Below, piece by piece: positions 124-22,948 of a stretch of DNA of 23,613 nucleotides. Positions within the stretch are counted from its first letter, which is position 1. Each line of letters begins with the position of its first letter. Origin of the DNA: a virus (lineage: Duplodnaviria > Heunggongvirae > Uroviricota > Caudoviricetes); IMG/VR virus record IMGVR_UViG_2617270938_000001; one strand, written 5' to 3'. The notes below the pieces were generated by a model. That model ran no database searches. It worked only from the letters and a program-made list of their open reading frames with translations, and was not told the origin of the DNA. The translations under genes were made by a program, and so were the position numbers.

Positions 124-177
124 CTCTGCAAAACCTCTGCAAAACCCCTCTGCAAAACTGGTCATCAAATGACCAGT
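124..177. repeat. attL-proximal repeats: three tandem copies of CTCTGCAAAAC (124-134, 135-145, 148-158) followed by inverted repeat CTGGTCAT-caa-ATGACCAG (159-177)
   Basis: Read directly from the sequence. Located between the host gene stop and the int stop, where an attL core or integrase binding sites are expected; the inverted repeat overlaps the last int codons. Confidence 0.5.
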
Positions 178-1295
178 TTTTTCCATTCCTTACCGCGTGC
201 GTCGTTGTAAATATCGGTCATTTTTTGATTCGAATGGCCCAGCAAAATTTTGGTATCAACCCCCTGCTCTCTGAACAATCGCTCTGATAAAGATCTCTGC
301 TCATGGAAAGAGGGTGGGGTGCCATTAGCACGCCAGTTGTAATCCACAGAATCCCGGGCTTTTTTAAATGCAACGGTTAATGTTGCTGGCTTAACCATCC
401 CGCCGCGCTTAGCTGTCCCTTTCGCGTGATGGTGGTGCAATAGCCACGGACTAAGAACGCAATCGCGGCAGGATGACACCACATCATCTAGGGTGAGATT
501 TAATTTATCGCAACGCAGAGCCAGAGGGATGGCAATCCGGGTTCCTGTTTTTTGCTGTTCGACATGAAGATAACCATCCCGGATATCCGAAAATTGCATT
601 TTGCAAATATCTGAAAGGCGCTGGCCTGTCATCAGTGCCAGCAGCATACCGCGCTGTAAAAAGTAACCATCCTTTTCCGCTGCGTTATAAATCATCATCC
701 ACTCATCAAAAGTCAGTCGCTGTCTTGATATCCGCACCTGCGGTTTTTTTGCCGATTCTGCAGGGTTAAAGCCTGGCGGGACATCGCCCGTTTGCTGAGC
801 TTCCCGGAAAACATCGATCAGTACCTTCCTGAAAATTTGTCCCATTCTGTTATGTCCTCTGGCCTTGTACTCTTCCAGTACTGATACCACATCTTTTACG
901 GTTATGGCATCTAACGGTCTGGTGCCAAAACGTTCATCAAATACCCTGAGAGGGGCCGCTTTCTGTTTCAGCGTGTTGAGTTTGATCTCGCCGTTTTCAT
1001 ATCTTTCCTGTTGAATTTTTCTGTAATTATTCAGAAAAATGGTAACGGTTGATGAACCGCCGGTATCACTAATAATTTTCTCCTGCAGACTGAGCATTTG
1101 TTCCATTTGCTGCCGGGCAAGACGGCTGTTCGCTTCTGCTGCAATAGTTTCTGCCAGTTTCTGGTCAATACTGCCGAGACCGTGATTTTTGCCTGTTATG
1201 GGATGCCTGTAACGCCAGTAAACTTTGTTATTTCTTTTGTCAAAATACGGAGATAATCCCGGAACATTGGTTTTATATTTTCGCGGGCGCGCCAT
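165..1295 (-). CDS. int: phage integrase, tyrosine recombinase (lambda Int family)
   Basis: 376-aa ORF. C-terminal region resembles lambda Int as I recall it (RLTFDEW..., GQRLSDICKM, HEQRSLSERL, LLGHSNQKMTDIYNDARGKEW), including the His/Arg and Tyr catalytic motifs. Sits next to the host junction with xis overlapping upstream. Confidence 0.9.
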   Translation of the reverse strand: MARPRKYKTNVPGLSPYFDKRNNKVYWRYRHPITGKNHGLGSIDQKLAETIAAEANSRLARQQMEQMLSLQEKIISDTGGSSTVTIFLNNYRKIQQERYENGEIKLNTLKQKAAPLRVFDERFGTRPLDAITVKDVVSVLEEYKARGHNRMGQIFRKVLIDVFREAQQTGDVPPGFNPAESAKKPQVRISRQRLTFDEWMMIYNAAEKDGYFLQRGMLLALMTGQRLSDICKMQFSDIRDGYLHVEQQKTGTRIAIPLALRCDKLNLTLDDVVSSCRDCVLSPWLLHHHHAKGTAKRGGMVKPATLTVAFKKARDSVDYNWRANGTPPSFHEQRSLSERLFREQGVDTKILLGHSNQKMTDIYNDARGKEWKKLVI

Positions 1296-1585: not shown

Positions 1586-4057
1586 TTAAAAATCAGCCTG
1601 GTTCGGGATCAGTTTTTGCCAGATAACTGAAACGTATTTTGCCTGGTAACGGGCGTCATCAAGTGCATTATGGCGCTCACCTTCGAATGGAATAGCCGTT
1701 CTGGCATCGAAGTCTATGGCTTTCCCCAGCTCAACGATTGTGCGTACATCGCGATCGTTGTAGTAACGCCACGGGCAGGGGATCCCCTGCCGTTCGTATG
1801 AACGGCGCAAAATCGTGTTGTCGAAGTTGGCTCCATTTCCCCAGACCTGAACAAAAAATTCACCGGAGTTTTCGTCGATAAATTCCCGCAATTGTAACAG
1901 TGCATCATCTAACGGGATTTCATCGGTCATAATGGCAGACTGCGCTTCACGTGATTGCTTCAGCCACCTTTTAATGACGTCACGATCAATGACTCCGCCA
2001 GCAGTTTCCAGATCGATAGTCTTACTAAATTCCGGTCCCATATCTCCGGTTTGCGGATCGAAAAATATTGCACCTATTGAGATAATCGGGGCATCAGGAT
2101 TTTTTCCCATGGTTTCAAGGTCGATCATTAGATGGTCACACGTCCTGCTGGTGGATGTGATAACGTGATGACCGTTCATCGTAATTAAGGGATCTGCCGT
2201 CTCGCCAGTTTCACTATCGCTGGCGTGATCCTGAGCGCTACCAGCATTCTCCTTGTGTGGATGTTCAGCGCCTTCCATTTCCTTCGGATCATTTTCCTGA
2301 ACTTCAACCTGATTCTCTTCATCGAATGTTTCCTGGTATGTTGCGTCACCCATCACCGCGCCACAATCAGGGCAGTTGCCGCCACCGCTTTGACCGCAGG
2401 CGGTGCAGACTTTTTCCGGTTCCTGTTGCGCTACTGGCTCAGGTTGTTTCGTTTCTGGCTCGTTTTGTTGCGTATTTGGGCTGTTTTGTTCCGCTTTCTG
2501 GTCGTTCTGTTCCGATTCTTGCTGGTTCTGGTTTACAGAATCGCGGGTTTCAATCCCCTTTACCCATTTCGGATCATTCGGGTCGCTAATCCCTGCAACA
2601 AATTCTCCGCGAGAGGCAGCAAGCAACTTATCGGCGTCAGGCTGGCTGATATTGGCTGCCTGCATAATTTTGTTTACTTCGTCAGCGGTAACTTTTACCG
2701 GCTCTGGTTGTGCGGTCGTGTCAGATGCACCAGTATTTTGTTGTGAACCTGAGTACGTGCCGTTTTTACGTGCGAAGTATTCCTCTTTTGTGATTTCCGT
2801 AGCTCCCAAGGCTAGTGCTTTTTCCAGACCAGAAAGTTTGTTTGCGCGACCGTATTTTTCGCCATCCTTGTCGGTGAAGAGGAAGTAGAACGGCCCCTCA
2901 CGCTCTACAGATGGTTCGACTTCCACTTTGCATTCGGTTTTTTCGTTGCCCGGAATTGCCGTTTCCACTGCATCAGTTTCTGGTACTGGCGACGAGAGAG
3001 TATCAGTTGCGCTCTGATTTCTTCCTTCATCTTCAAACACGCCCTTTGTAGTCAGGTATTCAGTAATGTATTTGTTCAGTGCCACAGGGTCTTTGTGAAT
3101 GTCGATCGGACGTTCACGGACAAGGCCAAAAATAGTCTGGCGGTCGTAGCGAAGGGCATCAGGCTGTTTGCGCATTGATGCCGAGATACGCTTCCAGTCT
3201 TCGCGGTCGTTGTCGATAACTTCATTTTTTGCCCAGCGATGGATGCTGCCGTCAATGTTTCCGGCATCCACATCACCAGGCCAGAGAGCGTAGGCCAGTT
3301 CGTCATCCAGTGTTTTCCATGTCTGCTTGTATTCGCGATGAATGGCAGCAATGACCGGGCTGATTTTTCCTGTTGAATTTTCACTGTGCTGTTGATTGGT
3401 TCTGGCGCGGGCGAGATCAACAACAGACGTGTATTTTCCGGTTTCCTTGCGTTCACCTTCGCGACGTTTTTTCCAGATGCGCATCTCTGCCTGAATTTCG
3501 GGCCATTTGGCACCAGGCTTACATTTATGCTTAACCCACCCGATGGCATGCAGCTTAAGCTCCGGATACATGGCGTTAACTTCTGGCATTTTCATCAACG
3601 CTTCAACGATATGTCCGTCGAATGTTGCCATGTCTTCCTGCAACAATTCCTGTGCGCTAATAACCATATCAACGGTGATGTTTTCACATGTGTCGAACTT
3701 AACCATGACAGCGTTCTGTACTTCAGGGGCCAGCTTGTCAAAAGTGACGTTCATCGGATCGGATTCAGTCTCAACCGGGACAAAGGAAGCAGACTCCTCA
3801 TCCCAGCGGTTTTCCTGCATATATTCAGCATCCCAGGAATCGAGGGCAGGGCGGGGTATACCGGGTTTATCCTCGCAGACAAGAAATTTATAAGCGCAGT
3901 CCTGAGCAGCCGGATAATGCTCCAGGAATTGCCAGTGAAATTTTGCGCGGGCGCGACGTTCATCACCGGCTTCAATGGCAGTGGCTACAGCGACGGCACC
4001 TTCTTCCTTTATTGCCTGTTCGTCCGGAATGGCGGCGCAAATAAAGACTTTACTCAT
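1586..4057 (-). CDS. exodeoxyribonuclease VIII-like protein with C-terminal DEDDh (DnaQ-like) 3'-5' exonuclease domain
   Basis: 823-aa ORF. C-terminal ~180 aa has exo motifs (MIDLETMG..., WGNGANFDNTIL, HNALDDARYQAKY). Central Cys4 ribbon CTACGQSGGGNCPDCG and a Q/E/P-rich low-complexity linker. GAGG SD upstream of the ATG at 4057. Confidence 0.8.
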   Translation of the reverse strand: MSKVFICAAIPDEQAIKEEGAVAVATAIEAGDERRARAKFHWQFLEHYPAAQDCAYKFLVCEDKPGIPRPALDSWDAEYMQENRWDEESASFVPVETESDPMNVTFDKLAPEVQNAVMVKFDTCENITVDMVISAQELLQEDMATFDGHIVEALMKMPEVNAMYPELKLHAIGWVKHKCKPGAKWPEIQAEMRIWKKRREGERKETGKYTSVVDLARARTNQQHSENSTGKISPVIAAIHREYKQTWKTLDDELAYALWPGDVDAGNIDGSIHRWAKNEVIDNDREDWKRISASMRKQPDALRYDRQTIFGLVRERPIDIHKDPVALNKYITEYLTTKGVFEDEGRNQSATDTLSSPVPETDAVETAIPGNEKTECKVEVEPSVEREGPFYFLFTDKDGEKYGRANKLSGLEKALALGATEITKEEYFARKNGTYSGSQQNTGASDTTAQPEPVKVTADEVNKIMQAANISQPDADKLLAASRGEFVAGISDPNDPKWVKGIETRDSVNQNQQESEQNDQKAEQNSPNTQQNEPETKQPEPVAQQEPEKVCTACGQSGGGNCPDCGAVMGDATYQETFDEENQVEVQENDPKEMEGAEHPHKENAGSAQDHASDSETGETADPLITMNGHHVITSTSRTCDHLMIDLETMGKNPDAPIISIGAIFFDPQTGDMGPEFSKTIDLETAGGVIDRDVIKRWLKQSREAQSAIMTDEIPLDDALLQLREFIDENSGEFFVQVWGNGANFDNTILRRSYERQGIPCPWRYYNDRDVRTIVELGKAIDFDARTAIPFEGERHNALDDARYQAKYVSVIWQKLIPNQADF

Positions 4058-4526: not shown

Positions 4527-5087
4527 TATCGCGTCCTCAACAATGAATTTTGTGATGCGGTGCCTGGTGCCTCCAGGTGACGTTAACCAGTTAACAATTA
4601 ACGCCGGATACAGAGAATCCACCCATAACACTGTTTTTGGTTTTAACTGTTCCGCGTGCGCTCAGCCGCATTCACCACATCACAAAATTCACTTTAAAAA
4701 GGGCGGCAGAGCAGTCACGGAGTAAAACTGATACCGCCAAACGTCACCAGAAAATTGATAACAGAGGGCGTTGCAGCGGGGTTGTCACTTAAGCGTATGG
4801 TCAACCTGACAACCCGGTGTCCTCAACGGGGAAGGAATACCCCCGCCATACTTACCGCCGCGCCATTTCGCGGAGTGCCACAACCGGAAGCGCACGGTCG
4901 ACGAAAATTTAACGACAGGCTATCTATGAACCAACAACTTCGCCGTGTGCTTTCGCGTTATGCCCTGACTTTTCAGGGAAATATCCTTTCAGTAAACTGT
5001 CAGTGCCGGATGCTCACCCGTGTCCGGCGCACGCACTCCACCTCACCCGTGGAGAACTCCTTAATCACCAACCCTCAGGAGGGTGAA

Positions 5088-7284: not shown

Positions 7285-7693
7285 ACACATCCGCATGGCG
7301 ATGAATGCCTGGGCGCATCCGGACGGTGAAAAAGTTCCGGCAGCTGAAATAACCAGGGCTTATTTTGAACTGGGTATGACGTTCCCAGAACTGTATGACG
7401 ACAGCCATCCGGAAGCCCTGGCTCGCAATACCCAGAAAATTTTCCGCTGGGTAGAGAAAGACACCCCTGATGCAGTTGAAAAAATTCAGGCGTTGTTACC
7501 AGCTATCGAAAAAGCAATGCCACCTCTGCTGGTGGCCCGAATGCGCAGCCATAGCTCAGCCTATTTTCGGGAACTAGTGGAGACGCGGGAACGACTGGTG
7601 AGAGACGCTGATGATTTTGTCGCAGTGGCGATCGCTGGTTTCAACCAGATGAATCGTGGTGGCCCTGCAGGAAATATTGTGGCTGTGCATTGA
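7268..7693 (+). CDS. YdaT-family protein (partner of the YdaS-like regulator)
   Basis: 141 aa beginning MKIKHEHI..., the N-terminus I recall for E. coli Rac YdaT; overlaps the cro-like gene 3' end. Confidence 0.65.
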   Translation: MKIKHEHIRMAMNAWAHPDGEKVPAAEITRAYFELGMTFPELYDDSHPEALARNTQKIFRWVEKDTPDAVEKIQALLPAIEKAMPPLLVARMRSHSSAYFRELVETRERLVRDADDFVAVAIAGFNQMNRGGPAGNIVAVH

Positions 7694-10731: not shown

Positions 10732-10942
10732 AAACGGTTTGCGGGAAAAGGAGAGTTAAGTAGAATTGCAGCGGGTGCTTGAGGCTATCTGTCTCAGGCA
10801 TGAACACCAAAAGGCAGATAGAGAAAAGCCCCAGTTAACATTACGCGTCCGGCAAGACGCTTAACATTAATCTGAGGCCATATCTATGCTCTACACACGT
10901 AGGTTAGCCTCTTACGTGCCGAAAGGCAAGGAGAAGCAGGCT

Positions 10943-11098
10943 ATGAAGCAGCAAAAGGCGATGCTAATCGCCCTGATCGTCATCTGTTTAACCGTCATTG
11001 TGACGGCACTGGTAACGAGGAAAGACCTCTGCGAGGTACGAATCCGAACCGGCCAGACGGAGGTCGCTGTCTTCACAGCTTACGAACCTGAGGAGTAA
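10943..11098 (+). CDS. hokD: Hok/Gef-family type I toxin (51 aa; matches my recollection of E. coli HokD/RelF)
   Basis: MKQQKAMLIALIVICLTVIVTALVTRKDLCEVRIRTGQTEVAVFTAYEPEE. AGGAGA SD 8 nt upstream. An in-frame upstream extension from ATG 10886 gives a 70-aa mok-like ORF. Confidence 0.9.
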   Translation: MKQQKAMLIALIVICLTVIVTALVTRKDLCEVRIRTGQTEVAVFTAYEPEE

Positions 11099-11544: not shown

Positions 11545-12591
11545 GTGCGGGTATTACTTCGACCTGTTCTGGTACCGGAACTCGGGCTGGTGATCGTTAA
11601 GCCGGGCCGTGAATCCATGCCGGTATTCCACAATACCCGGGTACTGGTGGAGCCGGAACCGAAAAGCATGCGTAATCTGCCGTCCGGGGTCGTTCCTGCC
11701 GTTCGCCAGCCGCTGGTGGAAGACAAAACATTGCTGCCGTTTTTCAGTAACGCACGGGTAATTCGTGCTGCTGGTGGTGCTGGTGCATTGTCTGACTGGC
11801 TGTTGCGCAATATTAAATCCTGCCAGTGGCCACACGGCGATTATCATCACAGCGAAACCGTTATTCACCGTTATGGTACCGGCGCAATGGTGTTGTGCTG
11901 GCACTGCGACAACCAGCTGCGTGACCAGACATCCGAATCACTCGAGCAACTTGCTCATCAAAACCTGTCAGCATGGATGATTGACGTCATCGGTCACGCA
12001 ATAAGCGGTACGCAGGAGCGTGAATTATCTCTGGCTGAATTATCCTGGTGGGCGGTCCGCAATCAGGTGGCGGACGCGCTACCGGAAGCGGTATTACGTC
12101 GTTCGCTGGGGTTGCGTGCGGAAAAAATCCGCTCAATGTACCGTGAAAGCGACATCGTACCGGGAGAGCAGACCGCCACCAGCATACTGAAGCAGCGCAC
12201 AAAAAATCTTGCGCCGCTGCCTCACGCCCACCAGCAAACCCCGCCACAGGAAGAGACGGTGGTCAGCATTGCCGTTGATCCTGAGTCTCCGGAATCTTTC
12301 ATGAAACGACCTAAACGTCGCCGCTGGGTTAACGAGAAATACACACGCTGGGTGAAGACACAGCCGTGTGCGTGTTGTGGTAAGCCAGCCGACGATCCCC
12401 ATCACCTGATTGGTCATGGTCAGGGCGGAATGGGGACAAAATCTCACGATATTTTCACGCTACCGCTGTGTCGGGAGCATCACAACGAGCTTCATGCGGA
12501 TCCTCTGGCGTTCGAAGAAAAGCATGGTTCTCAGGTTGATTTAATTTTTCGTTTTCTTGATCACGCCTTTGCAACTGGCGTGCTTGGGTAA
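11545..12591 (+). CDS. DUF968-family protein (YdfU-like) with C-terminal Cys/His zinc-binding, HNH-like motif
   Basis: 348 aa, GTG start with GGAGG SD. C-terminus: CACCGKPADDPHHLIGHGQGGMGTKSHDIFTLPLCREHHNELH. Position between hok and Q matches ydfU in Qin. Confidence 0.65.
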   Translation: MRVLLRPVLVPELGLVIVKPGRESMPVFHNTRVLVEPEPKSMRNLPSGVVPAVRQPLVEDKTLLPFFSNARVIRAAGGAGALSDWLLRNIKSCQWPHGDYHHSETVIHRYGTGAMVLCWHCDNQLRDQTSESLEQLAHQNLSAWMIDVIGHAISGTQERELSLAELSWWAVRNQVADALPEAVLRRSLGLRAEKIRSMYRESDIVPGEQTATSILKQRTKNLAPLPHAHQQTPPQEETVVSIAVDPESPESFMKRPKRRRWVNEKYTRWVKTQPCACCGKPADDPHHLIGHGQGGMGTKSHDIFTLPLCREHHNELHADPLAFEEKHGSQVDLIFRFLDHAFATGVLG

Positions 12592-12603
12592 AAGAGGTGA
12601 CTG

Positions 12604-12978
12604 ATGCTCATAGATTTGGTTTTACCTTACCCGCCGACGGTGAACACTTACTGGCGACGCCGTGGCAGCACATATTTTGTATCAAAAGCCGGGGAGCGTT
12701 ATCGCCGGGCAGTGGCGCTTATTGTTCGCCAGCAGCGGCTGAAATTAAGCCTGTCCGGAAGGCTGGCGATAAAGGTGATTGCAGAGCCACCGGATAAGCG
12801 TCGTCGCGACCTGGACAATATCCTGAAAGCACCGCTGGATGCGCTGACGCATGCGGGAGTGTTAATGGACGATGAGCAGTTTGATGAAATCAATATCGTT
12901 CGTGGTCAGCCAGTATCTGGTGGACGTCTGGGGGTGAAGATTTACCCCATAATGCATGAAGAGCAGGTCAAAAAATGA
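12604..12978 (+). CDS. rusA: Holliday junction resolvase RusA
   Basis: 124 aa with PPTVNTYWRRRG and RRRDLDNILKAPLDAL, matching the RusA motifs I recall (PPSNNRYYR... / RRRDLDNLQKA...). AGAGG SD. Confidence 0.85.
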   Translation: MLIDLVLPYPPTVNTYWRRRGSTYFVSKAGERYRRAVALIVRQQRLKLSLSGRLAIKVIAEPPDKRRRDLDNILKAPLDALTHAGVLMDDEQFDEINIVRGQPVSGGRLGVKIYPIMHEEQVKK

Positions 12979-13796
12979 AACTGGAAGATTTACCGAAATA
13001 CTACTCCCCAAAATCCCCCGGCCTGACTGATGCATCGGCCTCAACGTCGAAAGATGCGCTGAGTATCACTGATGTGATGGCCGCGCAGGGCATGACACAG
13101 AATCGGGCTGAGATGGGGTTTTCTGCGTTCCTTGGGAAAATGGGCATCAGTATGAATGACAGGGCGCGGGCAACAGAATTACTGGCAGATTATGCACTCA
13201 GTCGGTGCGATCGTGTGGCGGCGTTGAGAAAACTTCCGGCAGAAATAAAACCGGTAGTGATGCGCATTATGGCTTCGTACGCTTTTGAGGATTATGCCCG
13301 CAGCGCAGCGAGTAAAAAGCAGTGCCCTTGTTGCTATGGGGAAAAATTTATTGAAAGCATAGTTTTTACAAACAAGGTCCAGTATCCGGATGGTAAGCCG
13401 CCGGTATGGGCAAAGTGTACGAAAGGTGTGTATCCGTCTTACTGGGAAGAATGGAAAAAAGTCAGGGAGGTGGTAAAAGTTGCCTGTCCGGAGTGTGGCG
13501 GAAAGGGTGAGGTTTCCACCGCCTGTAAGGATTGCCGTGGGCGTGGTGTCGCCATTCATCGTGAAGAGTCGGTAAAACGTGGTATGCCTGTTATCAGAGA
13601 CTGCCAGCGTTGTGATGGTCGTGGCTGTGAAAGACTACCATCAACGGAGGCATTTAATGCCATACGCAAAGTGACGAGTGCTATCACGCTTGATACGTGG
13701 AAAAAATCAGTGAAACGCTTTTACGATACGTTGGTGGTTCGGTTTGACATTGAAGAGGCATGGGCGGAGCGGCAGTTAAAGAGGGTAACGCGATAG
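12975..13796 (+). CDS. late-gene antitermination protein Q (82/21/933W type)
   Basis: 273 aa with a Cys-rich zinc motif (CPECGGKGEVSTACKDCRGRG ... CQRCDGRG). Overlaps the rusA stop (ATGA); followed immediately by a promoter/terminator pair. Confidence 0.8.
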   Translation: MKLEDLPKYYSPKSPGLTDASASTSKDALSITDVMAAQGMTQNRAEMGFSAFLGKMGISMNDRARATELLADYALSRCDRVAALRKLPAEIKPVVMRIMASYAFEDYARSAASKKQCPCCYGEKFIESIVFTNKVQYPDGKPPVWAKCTKGVYPSYWEEWKKVREVVKVACPECGGKGEVSTACKDCRGRGVAIHREESVKRGMPVIRDCQRCDGRGCERLPSTEAFNAIRKVTSAITLDTWKKSVKRFYDTLVVRFDIEEAWAERQLKRVTR

Positions 13797-13900
13797 TGTT
13801 GTTGATTTTTCCCGAATCTGTGGTAAATTTGCTCTAACGATGGGCGTTTTATGCCTGACGTTAGAGGATTTTTACACCCCGCCGCCTGGCGGGTTTTTTA
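13797..13900 (+). promoter_or_regulatory. pR'-like late promoter with downstream tR'-like intrinsic terminator (CCCCGCC-GCCT-GGCGGG + TTTTTT at 13877-13899)
   Basis: TTGATT ... TGTGGTAAAT promoter-like elements directly after Q, then a GC hairpin with T-run about 50 bp downstream, the layout of the lambdoid short pR' transcript. Confidence 0.55.
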
Positions 13901-14021
13901 TGACTGAAATCGCGTCAGTACAGTAAACGCGCTGGTGGCGGTGAATACCTGTCTTTCAGCTTGCTGGCTTTTTCGACAAGAGTTATTGGTGTGTCACGTT
14001 AACCGGAAAAGGGAAAAAGAC

Positions 14022-14219
14022 ATGCTAAAACAGCAGGATATGACAGAAACCGCCAGAGTGGTGTTTAATGAATTAAGCGTTACCGACCCGGCGACAGTCG
14101 GGGAGATTGCGCAGAATACTTACCTTTCACGCGAACGCTGCCAGTTAATACTGACCCAGCTGGTTATGGCGGGTCTGGCAGACTATCAGTTCGGTTGTTA
14201 CAGACGCCTTCCGCAGTGA
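14022..14219 (+). CDS. small HTH/winged-helix-like DNA-binding protein (65 aa) upstream of the methyltransferase
   Basis: ATG 14022 with AAGGGA SD (MLKQQDMTETARVVFNELSVTDPATVGEIAQNTYLSRERCQLIL...). Terminator GCCTTC-loop-GAAGGC + T7 overlaps the stop (14206-14230). Confidence 0.5.
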   Translation: MLKQQDMTETARVVFNELSVTDPATVGEIAQNTYLSRERCQLILTQLVMAGLADYQFGCYRRLPQ

Positions 14220-14370
14220 AGGCTTTTTTTATTTGTGGTAAATGGGCGGCTGGTGGGTGTTAGGGGCACTCACCAGCCATCTGCTCATGCGTTGGGTTCA
14301 CAAGCAAACCTCAGGCCCACTGCTTTGCGCAAAAGCAGAATGAGCCTATCAGAGACAGGCTTAATGATCC

Positions 14371-15420
14371 ATGCTTAATACTGTAAAAATATCCAGTTGT
14401 GAGTTAATCAACGCCGACTGCCTGGAATTTATCCGGTCGTTACCCGAAAATTCTGTTGACCTGATAGTCACGGACCCGCCGTACTTTAAAGTGAAGCCTG
14501 AGGGCTGGGATAACCAGTGGAAGGGCGACGATGATTACCTGAAGTGGCTGGACCAGTGTCTGGCGCAGTTCTGGCGGGGGCTGAAACCTGCCGGAAGTCT
14601 TTACCTGTTCTGTGGTCATCGCCTGGCATCTGATATCGAAATCATGATGCGTGAACGCTTCAGTGTGCTGAACCATATTATCTGGGCGAAGCCGTCCGGA
14701 CGCTGGAACGGATGCAACAAGGAAAGCCTGCGGGCGTATTTCCCCGCCACAGAGCGCATTCTGTTCGCGGAACATTATCAGGGGCCGTATCGTCCGAAAG
14801 ATGCCGGGTATGCGGCGAAGGGCAGTGCACTGAAACAGCATGTGATGGCCCCGCTGATTTCTTACTTTCGTGATGCGCGCGCGGCCCTGGGGATAACGGC
14901 AAAACAGATTGCAGATGCCACAGGAAAGAAAAACATGGTGTCGCACTGGTTCAGTGCCAGTCAGTGGCAGCTACCGAACGAAAGCGATTATCTGAAATTA
15001 CAGTCGCTGTTTGCCCGGGTGGCAGAAGAGAAACATCAGCGGGGAGAACTGGAAAAGTCCCATTACCAACTGGTCAGCACATACAGTGAGCTGAACCGGC
15101 AGTATACGGAACTGCTGAGTGAATATAAAAATTTGCGGAGGTATTTCGGTGTGACGGTGCAGGTGCCGTACACCGATGTGTGGACGTATAAACCGGTGCA
15201 GTACTATCCAGGGAAACATCCGTGCGAAAAACCGGCAGAAATGCTGCAGCAGATAATCAGCGCAAGTAGTCGTCCTGGTGATCTGGTTGCGGATTTTTTC
15301 ATGGGGTCGGGTTCAACGGTAAAAGCGGCGATGGCACTGGGGCGTCGTGCGATTGGTGTTGAGCTGGAGACCGGACGTTTTGAGCAGACAGTCAGGGAAG
15401 TTCAGGATTTAATCGTTTGA
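14371..15420 (+). CDS. orphan DNA methyltransferase, beta-class amino-methyltransferase (N6-adenine or N4-cytosine)
   Basis: 349 aa. Motif IV DPPY near the N-terminus (LIVTDPPYF) and AdoMet motif I near the C-terminus (DFFMGSGST), the permuted order of beta-class MTases. No adjacent restriction endonuclease candidate. Confidence 0.85.
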   Translation: MLNTVKISSCELINADCLEFIRSLPENSVDLIVTDPPYFKVKPEGWDNQWKGDDDYLKWLDQCLAQFWRGLKPAGSLYLFCGHRLASDIEIMMRERFSVLNHIIWAKPSGRWNGCNKESLRAYFPATERILFAEHYQGPYRPKDAGYAAKGSALKQHVMAPLISYFRDARAALGITAKQIADATGKKNMVSHWFSASQWQLPNESDYLKLQSLFARVAEEKHQRGELEKSHYQLVSTYSELNRQYTELLSEYKNLRRYFGVTVQVPYTDVWTYKPVQYYPGKHPCEKPAEMLQQIISASSRPGDLVADFFMGSGSTVKAAMALGRRAIGVELETGRFEQTVREVQDLIV

Positions 15421-15469
15421 AACGGATGAGATTGCAGAATTAATTACGCACCATTATTATTCTGCTCCC

Positions 15470-15540
15470 GGCCCTTTAGCTCAGTGGTGAGAGCGAGCTA
15501 AAGGGCCGGGTCGCTGGTTCAAATCCAGCAAGGGCCACCA
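15470..15540 (+). tRNA. tRNA-Ile-like element with aberrant anticodon arm (probable tRNA pseudogene)
   Basis: Acceptor GGCCCTT/AAGGGCC, D-arm GCTC-AGTGGTGA-GAGC, T-arm GCTGG-TTCAAAT-CCAGC and 3' ACCA are intact. The anticodon-arm region is 12 nt (AGCTAAAGGGCC) instead of 17 and is perfectly complementary to the element's own 5' end. Confidence 0.5.
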
Positions 15541-15549
15541 TATCACATA

Positions 15550-15626
15550 CCACCATTAGCTCATCGGGATAGAGCGCCAGCCTTCGAAGCTGGTTGCGCG
15601 GGGTTCGAGTTCTCGATGGCGGTCCA
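15550..15626 (+). tRNA. tRNA-Arg (anticodon TCG)-like; candidate tRNA with imperfect stems
   Basis: D-arm GCTC-ATCGGGATA-GAGC; anticodon arm CCAGC-CTTCGAA-GCTGG; T-loop TTCGAGT; 3' CCA. One A-C mismatch in the acceptor stem and two G-T pairs in the T-stem. Confidence 0.45.
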
Positions 15627-15640
15627 TTTATCGGTATTCT

Positions 15641-15700
15641 GCGTTGTTAGCTCAGCCGGACAGAGCAATTGCCTTCTAAGCAGCTGTGGTTGCACTCCTG
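15641..15700 (+). pseudogene. tRNA-Arg (anticodon TCT)-like 5' fragment lacking a recognisable T-arm and 3' acceptor
   Basis: GCGTTGT-TA-GCTC-AGCCGGACA-GAGC-A-ATTGC-CTTCTAA-GCAGC resembles tRNA-Arg(UCU) through the anticodon loop, but the downstream sequence has no GGTTCGAATCC-like T-arm. Confidence 0.4.
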
Positions 15701-15882
15701 TTGTTTCTGGTGGTGATGGTGGACTTCAGCAGCCGGATAATGTCGGTGCTGTCTGATGGTGTTTTGGTGGCGGGTGTGTGGTTGTTGCTTTCCCGTTGCT
15801 GAAAAAGAAAGCATCAGGCGATTAGCAGGGTATCAGTTACCCGTTGAAATTTTTAAATACCTCACAATTCCACAGCTTGATG

Positions 15883-16080
15883 ATTGTCTGGCTGCCGGAG
15901 AATTTGTTAAAAATAACATCGCATGGTGAATCCCCCTCAGCGGCGGGGCATCTGGCAAAGTGTATGATCCAGAGAACATGCAAATTCAGTAGACAGGCTG
16001 AATTTACCGGGAGGCCCCTGGCACCATGCGACAGACAGAAATTAGGCTATACTTCAGCCCCTCTCCGGAGGGGCTTTTCT
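15883..16080 (+). ncRNA. candidate noncoding RNA element A (about 198 nt), paralog of element B, ending in intrinsic terminator AGCCCCTC-TCCG-GAGGGGCT + TTTT
   Basis: Shares blocks with 16352-16545 (ATTGTCTGGC, TTTGTTAAAAA, CGCATGGTGAATCCCCCT, GAATTnACCGGGAGGCnCCnGGCACCATGC, identical terminator hairpin). The overlapping ORFs are on different strands in the two copies, arguing against a shared protein. Confidence 0.45.
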
Positions 16081-16268
16081 GTGCAGGATGTGTCACAGTT
16101 TCCTGAATTCTGAGTACTGTCCTGTTACTCAGGGTGCTATATTTTCTGACGTGATGAAAGTCTGCCGGAAGGCGGAACGTATCGGAAATGACCCAGTAGA
16201 GAAAACGTTGACTCAGATACCGATGCTGAGTTACCGGGAAACCGGCATCACATGACCGCTATCCTTCC

Positions 16269-16292
16269 AGGCTCGCTCCGGCGGGCCTTTTT
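16269..16292 (+). terminator. intrinsic terminator between the two repeat elements (GGCTCGC-TCCG-GCGGGCC + TTTTT)
   Basis: GC-rich stem with tetraloop followed by a T-run; about 30 bp upstream lie TAAAAT and CATAAT -10-like hexamers preceding element B. Confidence 0.5.
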
Positions 16293-16351
16293 ACTGCAGA
16301 AAACAGTTTTCCCGTAAAATGCCACGTTGCTCATAATTCAGGCTGGCGATT

Positions 16352-16545
16352 ATTGTCTGGCCGGCGGGAAGTTTGTTAAAAAATTTCGCATGGTGAATCC
16401 CCCTGTGCGGAGGGGTAATCAGCGAGTAGGTATATGGGATAATCGCGGATTCAGGTGCTGGTACTGAATTCACCGGGAGGCACCCGGCACCATGCAATGG
16501 CACATAGCGCCACTCTCCAGCCCCTCTCCGGAGGGGCTGTTTATA
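16352..16545 (+). ncRNA. candidate noncoding RNA element B (about 194 nt), paralog of element A, same terminator hairpin (16519-16538)
   Basis: See element A. The conserved 5' block, the GGTGAATCCCCCT block, the GGGAGGC block and the terminator are retained while the middle has diverged. Confidence 0.45.
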
Positions 16546-16573
16546 TTGATTTTGTCAGATGTGAGTAAACTCC

Positions 16574-16909
16574 TTATGGACTTTGTTGTTTTAGTCCATA
16601 AGGACATATTTGCAGAGTGCAACGGTTATTAAAGCATTCATTCAATACGTTATCTGTATTTGTAGGGCATTCCTGGCTGTTTTTGATTAAATTCCAGAAT
16701 GTTTTATTGAATGGTACTACGTTGTAAATGGTTACAGGTAGCACTTTGTTATTGAGCATGATACCTGTGTGAGTCAGTGTAAATATACTTTCAGGAGGTA
16801 AGAAAGCATCCGATTGATACCAGATTATTAATTTTACTTTACTCCATATGACTGAAAAAGATATTCCGCATGATGGCTGGATAACTGTATCAATCACAAT
16901 CCACTTCAT
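16574..16909 (-). CDS. IraM/YcgW-family protein (anti-adaptor-like), AT-rich moron on the opposite strand
   Basis: 111 aa, [22 protein letters not shown]...IIWYQS...FLPP...ECP...ICPYGLK, matching my recollection of E. coli IraM from memory (not searched). AAGGAAG SD 6 nt upstream. Local GC is much lower than the flanks; a perfect 11-bp inverted repeat (16584-16615) covers the last codons. Confidence 0.6.
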
Positions 16910-17169
16910 TTAGCTTCCTTGTTTATGCCTTGCTGGTGATGTTCTGAAAAGTATAAATGATATTTTTGAATATAAACCATAGAGCAGAATTATTTTTCTG
17001 ATGTTGTTTATTGTTTATTTAAATGCAGGGTGGTTTATATCTCGTCTTGTAGTTTATCCATGCATATCTGCTTGATGATCAGGTTTCTATTTAAGGTATG
17101 GTTTTGTGTTTTTTCTGTGTTACATGTCTGGTATTTTAAAGAATTATTTTTCAGATGGTGGAAAGAACC

Positions 17170-17358
17170 ATGGCATTTAAACACTATGATGTTGTCAGGG
17201 CGGCGGCGCCGTCAGATCTTGCGGAAAAGCTGACACATAAACTGAAAGAGGGCTGGCAGCCGTTTGGTAGTCCGGTGGCCATAACCCCTTATACCCTGAT
17301 GCAGGCGATTGCAGCAGAAGGTGATGTGGTGGTCAGTGGTGCAACTGAGCCGGAGTGA
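17170..17358 (+). CDS. small conserved hypothetical protein (62 aa) upstream of the holin (possibly DUF1737-like)
   Basis: MAFKHYDVVRAAAPSDLAEKLTHKLKEGWQPFGSPVAI...; position just before the lysis cassette. Family name is recalled, not verified. Confidence 0.45.
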   Translation: MAFKHYDVVRAAAPSDLAEKLTHKLKEGWQPFGSPVAITPYTLMQAIAAEGDVVVSGATEPE

Positions 17359-17600
17359 TACTACGTCATCGTACTGGCCCGGCATTCCAGGCCATAAAAG
17401 ACGGTCTGGCAGTGGGACTAAATGCACTGACGCTGACGGATATTACCAAAAATGCAACGTATGGCGTTGAGATAGAAAGTCTGGTGCTGGAGATAAATAC
17501 ACCGGCATCATCATAAAAAGTGAGCCAGTCAAATGGAAGGTATCGTTAAACTCACCGGTAGTGTCAGTGGAGCGTCTGAGACGCTTGCATGAGTTATCAG

Positions 17601-17633
17601 AGCCATCAGTAGTTAACTGGTGGCTTTTTTATT
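17601..17633 (+). terminator. intrinsic terminator-like hairpin just upstream of the holin (AGCCATCAG-tagttaa-CTGGTGGCT + TTTTTTATT)
   Basis: 9-bp stem with one G-T pair followed by a T-run; promoter-like TTGAGA ... GATAAAT about 100-130 bp upstream. Confidence 0.5.
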
Positions 17634-17665
17634 GTTGTCAGCTTCCGGATAACGGGAGACGGGGT

Positions 17666-17881
17666 ATGGACCAGATGGAAAAAATCACAACAGGTGTGTC
17701 ATACACCACGTCAGCGGTGGGAACGGGCTACTGGTTCCTGCAGTTGCTGGACAGGGTTTCCCCGTCTCAGTGGGCGGCAATAGGCGTGCTGGGGAGTCTG
17801 CTGTTTGGGCTGCTGACATATCTGACTAACCTGTATTTCAAAATCAGAGAGGACCGTCGTAAGGCGGCACGGGGAGAGTAA
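17666..17881 (+). CDS. class II holin, phage 21 S21-type pinholin (71 aa) with dual-start motif
   Basis: [71 protein letters not shown], close to S21 as I recall it; Met1 and Met4 give the dual start. The track ORF 17561..17881 includes upstream run-in. Confidence 0.85.
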
Positions 17882-17885
17882 TTCA

Positions 17886-18236
17886 ATGACTCAAAACTAT
17901 GAACTGATTGTGAAAGGGATCCGCAATTTTGAGAATAAAGTTACGGTAACTTTAGCGTTACGGGACAAAAAACGCTTTGACGGTGAAATTTTTGACCTGG
18001 ACATCTCGCTGGACCGTGTTGAAGGTGCCGCGCTGGAGTTTTATGAGGCAGCAGCCAGAATGAGCATCAGACAGGTCTTCCTGGATGTTGCTGCCGGGTT
18101 ATGTGAAGGGGATGAGCAGTCGCCGGAAAAGCGCCCCGTAATTTTAGAGGCGCAGAATGTATGGATAACCTACAAAGGAAAGCTACCGGGAAGAATTACT
18201 GGTTCTCTGAAGACTCCTCCGGAATCACAACCTTAA
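17886..18236 (+). CDS. hypothetical protein (116 aa) embedded between holin and endolysin (YdfR-like position)
   Basis: GGGGAGAG SD; starts 5 nt after the holin stop. Some lambdoid prophages carry a gene at this position, but I cannot verify the family. Confidence 0.55.
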   Translation: MTQNYELIVKGIRNFENKVTVTLALRDKKRFDGEIFDLDISLDRVEGAALEFYEAAARMSIRQVFLDVAAGLCEGDEQSPEKRPVILEAQNVWITYKGKLPGRITGSLKTPPESQP

Positions 18237-18299
18237 GTCACTGACCGGAACAGATAAACCTGTCCGTGGGCAGAAACCGATAAATCCTGATAAATATCC

Positions 18300-18833
18300 A
18301 TGAACACCAAAATCAAATACGGCCTGTCGGCTGCCGTTCTGGCGCTGATTGCCGCTGGTGCGCCTGCGCCTGACATTCTCGACCAGTTTCTGGATGAAAA
18401 GGAAGGTAACCACACCACGGCATACCGTGATGGCGCGGGTATCTGGACCATCTGCCGCGGTGCCATCCTGGTGGATGGCAAACCTGTCGTTCCGGGCATG
18501 AAGTTGTCGAAGGAAAAATGCGACCGGGTTAACGCCATTGAGCGTGATAAGGCGCTGGCATGGGTGGAGAAAAACATCAAAGTGCCATTGAGCGAACCCC
18601 AGAAAGCGGGGATCGCGTCATTCTGTCCGTACAACATTGGTCCCGGTAAGTGTTTCCCGTCGACGTTTTATAAACGAATTAATGCAGGTGATCGCAGGGG
18701 AGCGTGTGAGGCGATTCGCTGGTGGATTAAGGACGGTGGCAGAGACTGCCGTATTCGTTCAAACAACTGCTACGGTCAGGTATCCCGTCGTGACCAGGAG
18801 AGCGCGCTGGCGTGCTGGGGTATCGACAGATAA
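18300..18833 (+). CDS. endolysin, lysozyme (T4-lysozyme / GH24-like) with N-terminal SAR (signal-anchor-release) domain
   Basis: 177 aa. Gly/Ala-rich weakly hydrophobic N-terminus (GLSAAVLALIAAGAPAP) followed by a lysozyme-like core (EGNHTTAYRDGAGIWTICRG ...), as in phage 21 R. Follows the pinholin. Confidence 0.85.
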   Translation: MNTKIKYGLSAAVLALIAAGAPAPDILDQFLDEKEGNHTTAYRDGAGIWTICRGAILVDGKPVVPGMKLSKEKCDRVNAIERDKALAWVEKNIKVPLSEPQKAGIASFCPYNIGPGKCFPSTFYKRINAGDRRGACEAIRWWIKDGGRDCRIRSNNCYGQVSRRDQESALACWGIDR

Positions 18834-18922
18834 GCAGAATATTTTGCTGAAAAATGCGGTTTGCTTACACGGACGGATAACACGAAATCCTGCGAACTGA
18901 CAAAAACTAAGTGAATAAAAGT

Positions 18923-19131: not shown

Positions 19132-19497
19132 ATGAACCGCGTACTGTGCGTGGTCATCATTGCCCTGCTGGTGGCCTGTGGTGCGCTTAGTCTGGGGCTG
19201 AATCATTACCGTGATAACGCCATAACCTACAAAGAGCAGCGCGATAAAAAAGTCAGTGAGCTGGAGCAGGCAAATGCAACCATTACTGATATGCAGCAGC
19301 GCCAGCGTGATGTTGCTGTACTTGATGCCAGATACTCGAGGGAATTAGCCGATGCGAGAGCTGAAAATGAAACTCTGCGCGCTGACGTTGCCGCTGGTCG
19401 TAAGCGCCTGCGGATCAACGCCACCTGCCCCGGTACCCGAACACGGCACTGGTCGGCGTGCAGGTGGACTCGGAACAGTTCGGCAGCCAGCAGGTGA
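19132..19497 (+). CDS. i-spanin Rz, N-terminal ~90 aa only; C-terminus replaced by out-of-frame J sequence (likely pseudogene); no Rz1 found
   Basis: [93 protein letters not shown] closely parallels lambda Rz; similarity is lost at about 19400-19420 where the J frame opens. Confidence 0.7.
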
Positions 19498-22280
19498 GCC
19501 GTAATTATCATCTTCGCGGGCGCATTCTGCAGGTGCCGTCGAACTATAACCCGCAGACGCGGCAATACAGCGGTATCTGGGACGGAACGTTTAAGCCAGC
19601 ATACAGCAACAACATGGCCTGGTGTCTGTGGGATATGCTGACCCATCCGCGCTACGGCATGGGGAAGCGTCTCGGTGCGGCGGATGTGGACAAATGGGCG
19701 CTGTATGTCATCGGCCAGAATTGCGACCAGTCGGTGCCGGATGGCTTTGGTGGCACGGAGCCGCGCATCACCTGTAATGCCTACCTGACCACACAGCGCA
19801 AGGCGTGGGATGTTCTCAGTGATTTCTGCTCGGCGATGCGCTGTATGCCGGTATGGAACGGGCAGACGCTGACGTTCGTGCAGGACCGACCGTCGGATAA
19901 GGTGTGGACCTATAACCGCAGTAATGTGGTGATGCCGGATGATGGCGCGCCGTTCCGCTACAGCTTCAGTGCCCTGAAGGACCGTCATAATGCCGTTGAG
20001 GTGAACTGGATTGACCCGGATAACGGCTGGGAGACGGCGACAGAGCTTGTTGAAGATACGCAGGCCATTGCCCGTTACGGTCGTAACGTCACGAAGATAG
20101 ATGCCTTTGGCTGTACCAGCCGGGGGCAGGCACATCGCGCCGGGCTGTGGCTGATTAAAACAGAACTGCTGGAAACGCAGACCGTGGACTTCAGCGTGGG
20201 TGCTGAAGGGCTTCGCCATGTGCCGGGCGATGTCATTGAAATCTGTGATGATGACTATGCCGGTATCAGCACCGGTGGTCGCGTGCTGGCGGTGAACAGC
20301 CAGACCCGGACGCTGACGCTCGACCGTGAAATCACGCTGCCATCCTCCGGTACCACGCTGATAAGCCTGGTTGACGGTCAGGGTAATCCGGTCAGCGTGG
20401 AGGTCCAGTCCGTCACCGACGGCGTGAAGGTGAAAGTGAGCCGTGTTCCTGACGGCGTTGCCGGATACAGCGTGTGGGGGCTGAAGCTGCCGACGCTGCG
20501 CCAGCGCCTGTTCCGCTGCGTGAGTATCCGTGAGAACGACGACGGCACGTATGCCATCACCGCCGTGCAGCATGTACCGGAAAAAGAAGCCATCGTGGAT
20601 AACGGGGCGCACTTTGACGGCGACCAGAGCGGCACGGTGAATGGTGTCACGCCGCCAGCGGTGCAGCATCTGACCGCAGAAGTCACCGCAGACAGCGGGG
20701 AATACCAGGTGCTGGCCCGCTGGGACACGCCGAAGGTGGTGAAGGGCGTGAGCTTCCTGCTTCGCCTGACCGTGGCAGCGGATGACGGCAGTGAGCGGCT
20801 GGTCAGCACGGCCCGGACGACGGAAACCACTTACCGCTTCACACAACTGGCTCTGGGGAACTACAGGCTGACAGTCCGGGCAGTAAATGCGTGGGGGCAG
20901 CAGGGCGATCCGGCGTCGGTATCGTTCCGGATTGCCGCACCGGCAGCGCCGTCGCGGATTGAGCTGACGCCGGGCTATTTTCAGATAACCGCCACGCCGC
21001 ATCTTGCGGTTTATGATCCGACGGTACAGTTTGAGTTCTGGTTCTCGGAAAAGCGGATTGCGGATATCAGGCAGGTTGAAACCACAGCACGCTATCTTGG
21101 GACGGCGCTGTACTGGATAGCCGCCAGTATCAATATCAGGCCGGGTCATAATTATTATTTTTACGTTCGCAGTGTGAACACCGTTGGCAAATCGGCATTC
21201 GTGGAGGCTGTTGGTCAGCCGAGTGATGACGCATCCGGCTATCTGGATTTTTTCAAAGGCGAGATAGGGAAAACCCATCTGGCTCAGGAGCTGTGGACGC
21301 AGATTGATAACGGTCAGCTTGCGCCTGACCTGGCTGAAATCAGAACATCCATTACGGATGTCAGCAATGAAATCACACAGACCGTCAATAAGAAACTGGA
21401 AGACCAGAGTGCGGCAATTCAGCAGATACAGAAGGTTCAGGTTGATACAAATAATAACCTGAACAGCATGTGGGCTGTGAAGCTGCAGCAGATGCAGGAC
21501 GGACGCCTTTATATCGCGGGTATTGGTGCCGGTATTGAGAACACCCCTGACGGCATGCAGAGTCAGGTGCTGCTGGCGGCAGACAGGATTGCGATGATTA
21601 ATCCTGCGAATGGCAACACAAAGCCGATGTTTGTTGGGCAGGGCGATCAGATATTCATGAACGACGTGTTCCTGAAACGCCTGACGGCTCCCACCATTAC
21701 CAGCGGCGGTAATCCTCCGGTATTTTCCCTGACACCGGACGGGCGGCTGACGGCGAAAAATGCCGATATCAGCGGTAACGTGAATGCGAACTCCGGGACG
21801 CTCAACAACGTCACGATTAACGAGAACTGTCGGGTTCTGGGAAAACTGTCTGCGAACCAGATTGAAGGCGATCTCGTTAAAACAGTGGGCAAAGCTTTCC
21901 CCCGGGACTCCCGTGCACCGGAGCGGTGGCCATCAGGGACCATTACCGTCAGGGTTTATGACGATCAGCCGTTTGACCGGCAGATTGTTATTCCCGCGGT
22001 GGCGTTTCGTGGCGCTAAACATGAGCGGGAGAATAACGATATTTATTCGTCATGCCGCCTGATGGTGAAGAAAAACGGTGCTGAAATTTATAACCGTACC
22101 GCGCTGGATAATACGCTGGTTTATACAGGTGTTATTGATATGCCTGCTGGTCGCGGTCACATGACGCTGGAGTTTTCGGTATCAGCGTGGCTGGTAAATG
22201 ACTGGTATCCCACAGCCAGTATCAGTGATTTGCTGGTTGTGGTGATGAAGAAATCCACAGCAGGTATCACGATTAGCTGA
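19404..22280 (+). CDS. J: tail-tip host specificity protein J, 5'-truncated (C-terminal ~940-960 codons; no upstream J sequence, start codon or promoter of its own)
   Basis: Long high-GC ORF with the size, position (immediately before lom and stf) and motifs expected of lambda J's C-terminal two-thirds. The frame is open from 19404; the track ORF begins at GTG 19458. Head and tail-shaft genes are absent upstream. Confidence 0.8.
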
Positions 22281-22348: not shown

Positions 22349-22948
22349 ATGCGTAAAGTTTGTGCAGCCATTTTGTCCGCAGCCATCTGTCTGGCCGTAT
22401 CCGGTGCGCCTGCATGGGCGTCTGAGCAGCAGGCCACACTGAGCGCAGGGTATCTTCATGCCCGTACGAACGCTCCCGGCAGCGATAATCTGAACGGGAT
22501 TAACGTGAAATACCGTTATGAGTTTACGGACACGCTGGGGCTGATTACGTCATTCAGTTATGCCAACGCTGAAGATGAGCAAAAAACGCATTACAGCGAT
22601 ACCCGCTGGCATGAGGATTCCGTGCGTAACCGCTGGTTCAGCGTGATGGTGGGGCCGTCTGTGCGCGTGAATGAATGGTTCAGCGCGTATGCGATGGCGG
22701 GTGTGGCTTACAGCCGTGTGTCGACTTTCTCCGGGGATTATCTCCGCGTAACTGACAACAAGGGGAAAACGCACGACGTGCTGACCGGAAGTGATGACGG
22801 TCGCCACAGCAACATGTCTCTGGCGTGGGGGGCTGGCGTGCAGTTTAACCCGACCGAATCCGTGGCCATTGATGTCGCTTATGAAGGCTCCGGCAGTGGC
22901 GACTGGCGCACTGACGGTTTCATCGTGGGTGTCGGTTATAAGTTCTGA
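22349..22948 (+). CDS. lom: Lom outer-membrane protein (Ail/Lom/PagC family)
   Basis: 199 aa; signal peptide, GINVKYRYE motif and C-terminus AYEGSGSGDWRTDGFIVGVGYKF, the same C-terminus as lambda Lom as I recall it. Confidence 0.9.
   Translation: MRKVCAAILSAAICLAVSGAPAWASEQQATLSAGYLHARTNAPGSDNLNGINVKYRYEFTDTLGLITSFSYANAEDEQKTHYSDTRWHEDSVRNRWFSVMVGPSVRVNEWFSAYAMAGVAYSRVSTFSGDYLRVTDNKGKTHDVLTGSDDGRHSNMSLAWGAGVQFNPTESVAIDVAYEGSGSGDWRTDGFIVGVGYKF

Follow-up and report, generated by a model that had tools for sequence, protein, structure and literature searches.

The tRNA array and its prophage setting

The stretch of DNA analysed here (23,613 bp in full, hereafter the window) is a lambdoid E. 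coli prophage and makes up the whole of contig JNMO01000073.1 in the draft assembly GCA_000700385.1. Its gene order starts with an integrase and runs through a Q-type antiterminator and a DNA methyltransferase to a short array of tRNA-like sequences, downstream of which lie two STnc100 RNA elements, iraM and lysis genes. The main features, given with the strand where recorded, are:

165-1295, minus strand: integrase, at the start of the gene order
12975-13796: Q-type antiterminator, 273 aa, upstream of the array
14371-15420: DNA methyltransferase, 349 aa, upstream of the array
15432-15460, plus strand: putative tRNA-array promoter pT (TTGCAG, 17-nt spacer, TATTAT), by match to phage 933W (AF125520)
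15470-15540, plus strand: ileZ pseudogene (tRNA-Ile2, CAU type) without an anticodon stem-loop, 71 nt against 76 (Rfam, ARAGORN, alignment)
15550-15626, plus strand: argN, tRNA-Arg(UCG), a weakened allele with an A3:C70 mismatch and G53:U61 (ARAGORN, Rfam)
15641-15682, plus strand: argO stump, the first 42 nt of tRNA-Arg(UCU), identical to EcPF40 argO up to position 42
15686-15802, plus strand: truncated DUF3927 ORF, 38 aa, GTG start, beginning 3 nt past a deletion junction
18300-18833: lysozyme gene
19458-22280: J tail-tip gene, N-terminally truncated, 940 aa, with the first Pfam tail domain from residue 111
22349-22948: lom

In alignment, the segment at 15470-15690 shows ~91% identity to ileZ-argN-argO of phage 933W and of hundreds of Stx2 phages, which bears out the original prediction that three tRNA-like sequences sit where Stx phages carry this array. 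Judged by alignment, it is the ileZ-argN-argO array of 933W-like phages, with its members in three states of damage. The gene names are taken from the GenBank annotation of AF125520 (933W); a literature search returned no papers naming ileZ, argN and argO together, and a looser search returned none with the term ileZ. The hexamers and spacing at 15432-15460 are the same as those of the 933W feature annotated as "pT; putative tRNA promoter" in AF125520. The element falls below the threshold of a generic sigma-70 scan, and by its match to 933W it is presumed to act as a promoter.

The prophage is closest, among complete genomes, to that of E. coli MS 85-1, which it matches over 12274-18838 only. 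At 18838 this homology ends, and J followed by lom come almost directly after the lysozyme gene. No terminase, portal, capsid or tail-shaft genes are found between lysozyme and J in the window, whereas MS 85-1 has such genes. Because its packaging, head and tail-shaft genes are missing, the prophage is defective, and this fits relaxed selection on its accessory tRNA genes, which in such phages are thought to support translation of the late genes. We infer that the array is decaying under relaxed selection in a defective prophage.

Rfam places two full-length copies of the STnc100 sRNA family on the plus strand, ~470 nt apart, at 15891-16084 (138.8 bits) and 16360-16548 (132.5 bits), both ending in the same terminator-like hairpin, AGCCCCTCTCCGGAGGGGCT. 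The pair also occurs in DA33133, 640R1 and EcPF40, and in 933W one copy starts just downstream of stxB. The early region of the prophage carries a DicF sRNA (4701-4752, minus strand, 76.7 bits) and a sok antitoxin RNA (10773-10948, plus strand, 117 bits), the latter implying a hok/sok-type type I toxin-antitoxin locus. A perfect 12-bp hairpin at 16571-16604 overlaps the iraM/PmrD-like gene (minus strand, 16574-16909) at its stop end and another, at 154-180, abuts the 3' end of the integrase gene; both may be terminators or att-related.

The second and third members of the array each carry damage of their own. ARAGORN calls argN as a tRNA-Arg(tcg) with a complete cloverleaf, its sole call in the whole window, with no tRNA called at ileZ. 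The Rfam score of argN is 44.9 bits (gathering score 29), compared to 54.8 bits for 933W argN. Exactly two positions differ from the EcPF40 allele, both in stems: a change of G3 to A makes an A3:C70 mismatch, and a change of C61 to T turns G53:C61 into G53:U61. Both substitutions are derived relative to EcPF40 and 933W, and canonical pairing is lost at 3:70 and 53:61; explicit pairing gives two G:T pairs in the T stem. The identical allele is present in 32 E. coli records, and PGAP labels it tRNA-Arg in both of the feature tables read. Both substitutions weaken stems, and this damage to argN is inherited and older than the lesion in ileZ.

In EcPF40, which has the same backbone, the array consists of three intact tRNAs, followed by a TerB-family gene and a DUF3927 gene of 54 aa. 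Homology of the third element to argO ends within the 3' strand of the anticodon stem, so that the T arm and the 3' acceptor strand are missing, and neither ARAGORN nor Rfam finds a tRNA there. At the junction 15682|15683 the sequence resumes at position 3403 of EcPF40 L005. A 654-bp deletion (EcPF40 L005 2749-3402) has thereby fused argO, after position 42, to the DUF3927 gene at its codon 8, removing the 3' half of argO together with the TerB-family gene. This junction is found in 325 of 5,426 genomes, once in each, and the truncation of argO, like the damage to argN, is older and inherited. The DUF3927 gene lost its first seven codons in the same deletion, and a 1-nt deletion alters its C-terminus relative to EcPF40; Pfam DUF3927 is recorded for the gene call, PGAP labels it "DUF3927 family protein" in identical relatives, and the 38-aa ORF looks like a remnant.

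Two other readings of the third element were considered and rejected. MAFFT aligned TGGTTGCACTCC with the T arm of argO, TGGTTCGAATCC, as if a degenerate T arm were present, but TGGTTGCACTCC is coding DNA of DUF3927, found in EcPF40 at a distance of 654 bp downstream from argO. The idea that an integrase or an att-type event produced the breakpoint was set aside as well, there being neither microhomology nor a repeat at the junction.

The original prediction had described the second element as having a readable TCG anticodon, an A-C mismatch in the acceptor stem and two G-T pairs in the T stem, and the third as resembling tRNA-Arg(UCU) through the anticodon loop and then lacking a T arm; ARAGORN and explicit pairing agree with the former, and the end of the argO match at position 42 agrees with the latter.

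Related arrays are damaged in other ways. In prophages of the 640R1 type ileZ is intact and the argN position is called by neither ARAGORN nor Rfam; in vB_EcoS-640R1 (L002, 1613-1695) the acceptor ends of argN (CCGCCAT...ATGGCGG) are kept and the interior is strongly divergent. The same divergent type of argN occurs in E. coli CH4784-like genomes, as a different decay route in the same array. In E. coli 1296KP (L006, 401-467) the region upstream of ileZ and its 5' half are divergent and the anticodon loop region is short by 4 nt; argN and argO are still annotated there, and the ileZ lesion is independent. Because 640R1 (in argN) and 1296KP (in ileZ) carry different damage, the array decays along independent routes in different lineages.

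Sequence state and predicted folding of the ileZ pseudogene

The first member of the array scores 51.5 bits with the Rfam tRNA model (over 15470-15537), compared to 72.5 bits for intact ileZ. In the Rfam alignment its acceptor (a 7-bp stem), D and T arms are all paired and CCA is encoded at the 3' end. In the place of the anticodon arm it has 12 nt, where the model expects 17 (a 5-bp stem and a 7-nt loop), and these 12 nt, AGCTAAAGGGCC, are the exact reverse complement of its own bases 1-12. Both the retention of the three arms with CCA and the exact complementarity of the short anticodon arm to the 5' end had been predicted originally, and both hold up.

Alignment to ancestral ileZ narrows the change further. 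Where the ancestral gene reads GAGC-GACTCATAATCGCCA-GGTC, the window reads GAGC-TAAAGGGCCG-GGTC, and the CTCATAA anticodon loop is deleted; the sequence GAGCGAGCTAAAGGGCCGGGTC would serve as a marker of the allele. Outside 15499-15508 the gene is identical to ileZ of MS 85-1, DA33133 and 933W. Across the 1,290 bp from 14625 to 15914 this cluster is the sole difference from MS 85-1, and the same pattern is seen with DA33133, which is identical across the array apart from the cluster at 15499-15508.

With the new tract in place, a repeat search of the window gives a perfect inverted repeat of 16 bp, CCCGGCCCTTTAGCTC / GAGCTAAAGGGCCGGG, with a loop of 12 nt. Its parts, named after the origin proposed below, are:

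15467-15482, plus strand: left arm, consisting of the leader CCC and tRNA positions 1-13, the putative source template of the switch (100% complementary)
15495-15510, plus strand: right arm, consisting of GAGC (pre-existing, putative priming microhomology), the tract thought to be templated and GG (putative return microhomology), from the repeat search and alignment
15499-15508, plus strand: minimal novel tract TAAAGGGCCG in place of the ancestral 15 nt GACTCATAATCGCCA, net -5 nt, by alignment to MS 85-1

The repeat takes in three leader bases (CCC) that lie outside the tRNA, as well as three bases of the variable region. A perfect hairpin of 13 bp in the 5' half had been predicted; the hairpin does exist, but its length was understated, as the perfect repeat extends to 16 bp and into the leader. 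It is the longest perfect hairpin of the window, and when the window was shuffled 100 times with dinucleotides preserved, stems reached 14 bp at most, with 97 of the 100 shuffles giving 11 bp or less.

Thermodynamic prediction places the cloverleaf well away from the preferred fold of the mutant RNA. The minimum free-energy fold of the 71-nt molecule contains a 13-bp 5' hairpin (-38.2 kcal/mol), and a simple combination of the 13-bp 5' hairpin with the T arm gives -33.0 kcal/mol, compared to -24.8 kcal/mol for the tRNA-like pairing of acceptor, D and T arms. With the leader included and the full 16-bp stem formed, the RNA reaches -43.9 kcal/mol (z = -4.8). At the level of DNA, the mutant hairpin has a predicted energy of -21.3 kcal/mol (z = -5.9), against -9.0 kcal/mol (z = -0.2) for the best fold of the ancestral sequence.

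The 5' acceptor strand of the RNA is thus predicted to be locked in the new hairpin. Because the anticodon is absent and the acceptor strand would be sequestered, the RNA is not expected to adopt a tRNA fold or to undergo processing and charging as a tRNA, and both the sequence and its predicted folding suggest that this ileZ is a dead tRNA gene. Two further assignments were tried and rejected. The hairpin does not qualify as an intrinsic terminator, as no run of T follows it and it is absent from the terminator scan. Nor does the locus qualify as a tmRNA-like or other tRNA-like functional element, given that ARAGORN reports no tmRNA and that the hairpin is predicted to tie up the acceptor strand.

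Origin of the replaced tract

The intact 76-nt ileZ is found in 3,057 of 5,426 complete E. coli genomes, at 7,527 places, and phages 933W and 640R1 carry it as well. Of 3,068 E. coli records, 2,776 have a best copy that matches it at 100% identity, and only five have one below 95%. The mutant junction, by comparison, gave no match in the 5,426 complete E. coli genomes (42-nt megablast query), in IMG/VR, in JGI metagenomes (searched with a 32-mer and a 22-mer) or in GTDB representative genomes, and was absent from 50,697 GenBank phage records. Because the intact form is very widely conserved and the mutant junction was found nowhere else in these collections, the allele is, on this comparison, derived and private to the contig of the window. 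Alignment to 933W ileZ had been proposed as a check on whether the first element might be the standard form of a functional phage tRNA; the standard form is the intact 76-nt gene.

A singleton of this kind could in principle have arisen in vitro or in the assembler, with the strain itself carrying an intact ileZ. The allele is unique in all collections searched, JNMO01000073.1 comes from a draft whole-genome shotgun assembly, and in vitro polymerases can also switch templates. However, the change lies mid-contig, ~8 kb from the nearest contig end and between unique flanks, and a 16-nt repeat is probably below the k-mer lengths typical of assemblers, which makes a graph error unlikely. A consensus requires the agreement of most reads, whereas chimeras made in vitro are read-level events. 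Nearby ORFs are intact, and the methyltransferase, at 349 aa, is exactly as long as that of MS 85-1, which argues against a generally error-prone assembly; furthermore, the contig is recorded in two samples. A sequencing, library or assembly artefact is therefore improbable, and we treat the allele as a real mutation.

The sequence of the tract points to how it may have been made. Taken together with the GAGC before them and the GG after them, the ten novel bases form an exact reverse-complement copy of tRNA positions 13 to -3. They fit one fixed register, for which the probability by chance is ~4^-10, and there is microhomology at both putative switch points (GAGC/GCTC and GG). In the ancestral gene the complementarity amounted to 4 bp, and it has been extended by 10 nt into the 16-bp repeat. 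A clustered change within identical flanks, an exact reverse-complement tract and a resolved direction of change, which are the features expected of a template switch, are all present. The strongest clue to template switching, a mechanism that the original prediction did not name, is that the repeat continues upstream of the tRNA into the leader, and the pattern is exactly as would be expected if the polymerase had briefly copied the neighbouring complementary strand. At E. coli quasipalindromes, template switching is a well-established mechanism (PMC7202029), and it has been put forward as a way in which perfect stems may arise in RNA genes, where structure-breaking events are rarely fixed (PMC8794818).

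We therefore suggest that ileZ was very probably inactivated by one short-range replication template switch, that is, by a quasipalindrome-type mutation. During copying of ancestral ileZ, the nascent strand would have ended in the second GAGC of GAGCGAGC (tRNA positions 26-29), and this GAGC would have paired with GCTC at positions 10-13, on the 5' side of the D stem, by fold-back or across the fork. Backward extension from position 9 to -1, or else to -3, would have written TAAAGGGCCG(GG), after which the strand could have returned to its proper template at the GG of AGGTC. The net outcome would be the replacement of 15 nt containing the CAU anticodon loop by 10 self-complementary nt, and the creation of a perfect 16-bp hairpin in the process. 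In a four-point model, the switch points would be ordered 3-2-1-4 on the ancestral sequence, which is one of the two majority patterns and yields single inverted repeats (PMC7954356). This replication mechanism is inferred from the sequence of the two alleles.

With a priming complementarity of 4 bp, compared to the much longer imperfect repeats at classical hotspots, such a switch should be a rare event rather than the product of a hotspot, and its rarity is consistent with a single sighting among thousands of ileZ copies. The possibility that the D-arm/GAGCGAGC site is a mutation hotspot was examined and rejected: five of 3,068 best ileZ matches fall below 95% identity, and the one inspected, from 1296KP, has a different lesion.

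An imported tract would be another way to obtain a clustered change. Lambdoid prophages are highly mosaic, the restriction of the MS 85-1 match to 12274-18838 is itself in keeping with this, and anticodon and T loops of tRNAs are common integrase targets, so that another tRNA-like locus might be invoked as the donor in recombination or gene conversion, or an integrase as acting at the anticodon loop. Nevertheless, no donor was found for the GAGCTAAAGGGCCGGGTC tract, and none with ileZ flanks, in the collections searched, whereas ileZ itself contains an exact reverse complement of the tract, 17 nt further upstream. Identity to MS 85-1 is 100% over >870 bp of left flank and >400 bp of right flank, with no sign of a conversion tract. 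We regard import as extremely unlikely.

The remaining issue is whether the product might have been put to use. It had been left open originally whether the three elements are decayed tRNA genes or have been repurposed as structured RNA or processing signals, and the results favour the former: the self-templated replacement in ileZ, the stem substitutions in argN and the deletion stump of argO all speak for decay. Repurposing of the first element, as an RNase III or RNase E processing signal, as a hairpin small RNA or as a tRNA-like decoy with acceptor and T arms, could appeal to the very stable predicted hairpin and to the intact promoter hexamers and T arm. Against it, the hairpin is the exact product of a single neutral or deleterious template switch, so that a known mutational mechanism fully explains it, and the copied source extends beyond the tRNA into its leader, a feature that a functional design based on the tRNA can hardly account for. 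Moreover, the change removes sequence that is otherwise very strongly conserved, and the host prophage is defective. Because the allele was seen in no other searched sequence, there is no second occurrence and hence no conservation or covariation to indicate a function. Repurposing is, in our view, very unlikely.

In its most specific version, the 16-bp stem would act as a new RNase III or stability element altering the expression or processing of the downstream argN, or would be a source of a small hairpin RNA. A perfect 16-bp RNA stem may suffice in length for RNase III cleavage. We give this version a slimmer chance still than repurposing as a whole; if it were true, the locus would be a freshly born structured RNA, caught just after the template-switch event.

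Comparison with known tRNA genes and template-switch mutations

Inactivation of ileZ by one template switch, the reading preferred here, leaves most of the likeness to the functional gene in place. As in 933W and other Stx and lambdoid phages, where ileZ encodes a tRNA-Ile2 with a CAU anticodon that reads AUA, it is the first gene of the array, with Q upstream of it and the pT hexamers in front, and the acceptor, D and T arms, the discriminator base and CCA are identical to those of 933W ileZ. Unlike the latter, it has no anticodon stem-loop, with 10 nt in place of 15, and its score drops from 72.5 to 51.5 bits. This calls for some caution in annotation, as a dead ileZ at 51.5 bits is far above the gathering score of 29, and pipelines without an anticodon check would list it as a tRNA.

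The tRNA-like domain of tmRNA is a natural case of acceptor and T arms without an anticodon stem-loop. However, the 5' strand of the acceptor is predicted to be captured by the hairpin in the window and there is no conservation, so the likeness is superficial.

The mutation itself is similar to quasipalindrome mutations of E. coli, in that a clustered multi-base change perfects an imperfect repeat, with a nearby template and with microhomology at both switches. It differs from the quasipalindrome of 18 bp used in lacZ reporters in having begun with 4 bp of complementarity, and also in that 10-12 new bases would have been written with a net deletion of 5 nt, in a natural isolate and in a single sighting. 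It likewise resembles the events described by Monttinen and Loytynoja 2022 (PMC8794818), in which a single event makes a perfect stem inside an RNA gene. The emphasis there is on events that preserve or create structure and so survive selection, whereas the event proposed here destroys a cloverleaf and persists only as a private allele. It would thus illustrate the published expectation that structure-breaking events survive only under weak selection, here in a defective prophage.

We conclude that the first gene of this array adds one more case to two familiar categories, tRNA pseudogenes and template-switch mutations, and implies no new biology. Its value lies in being a clean natural example, in which a direct reading of the sequence reveals the ancestral state, the template, the two microhomologies and the working of a single event, and which suggests that one template switch can, in a single step, abolish the native fold of an RNA gene and create a perfect hairpin in its place.
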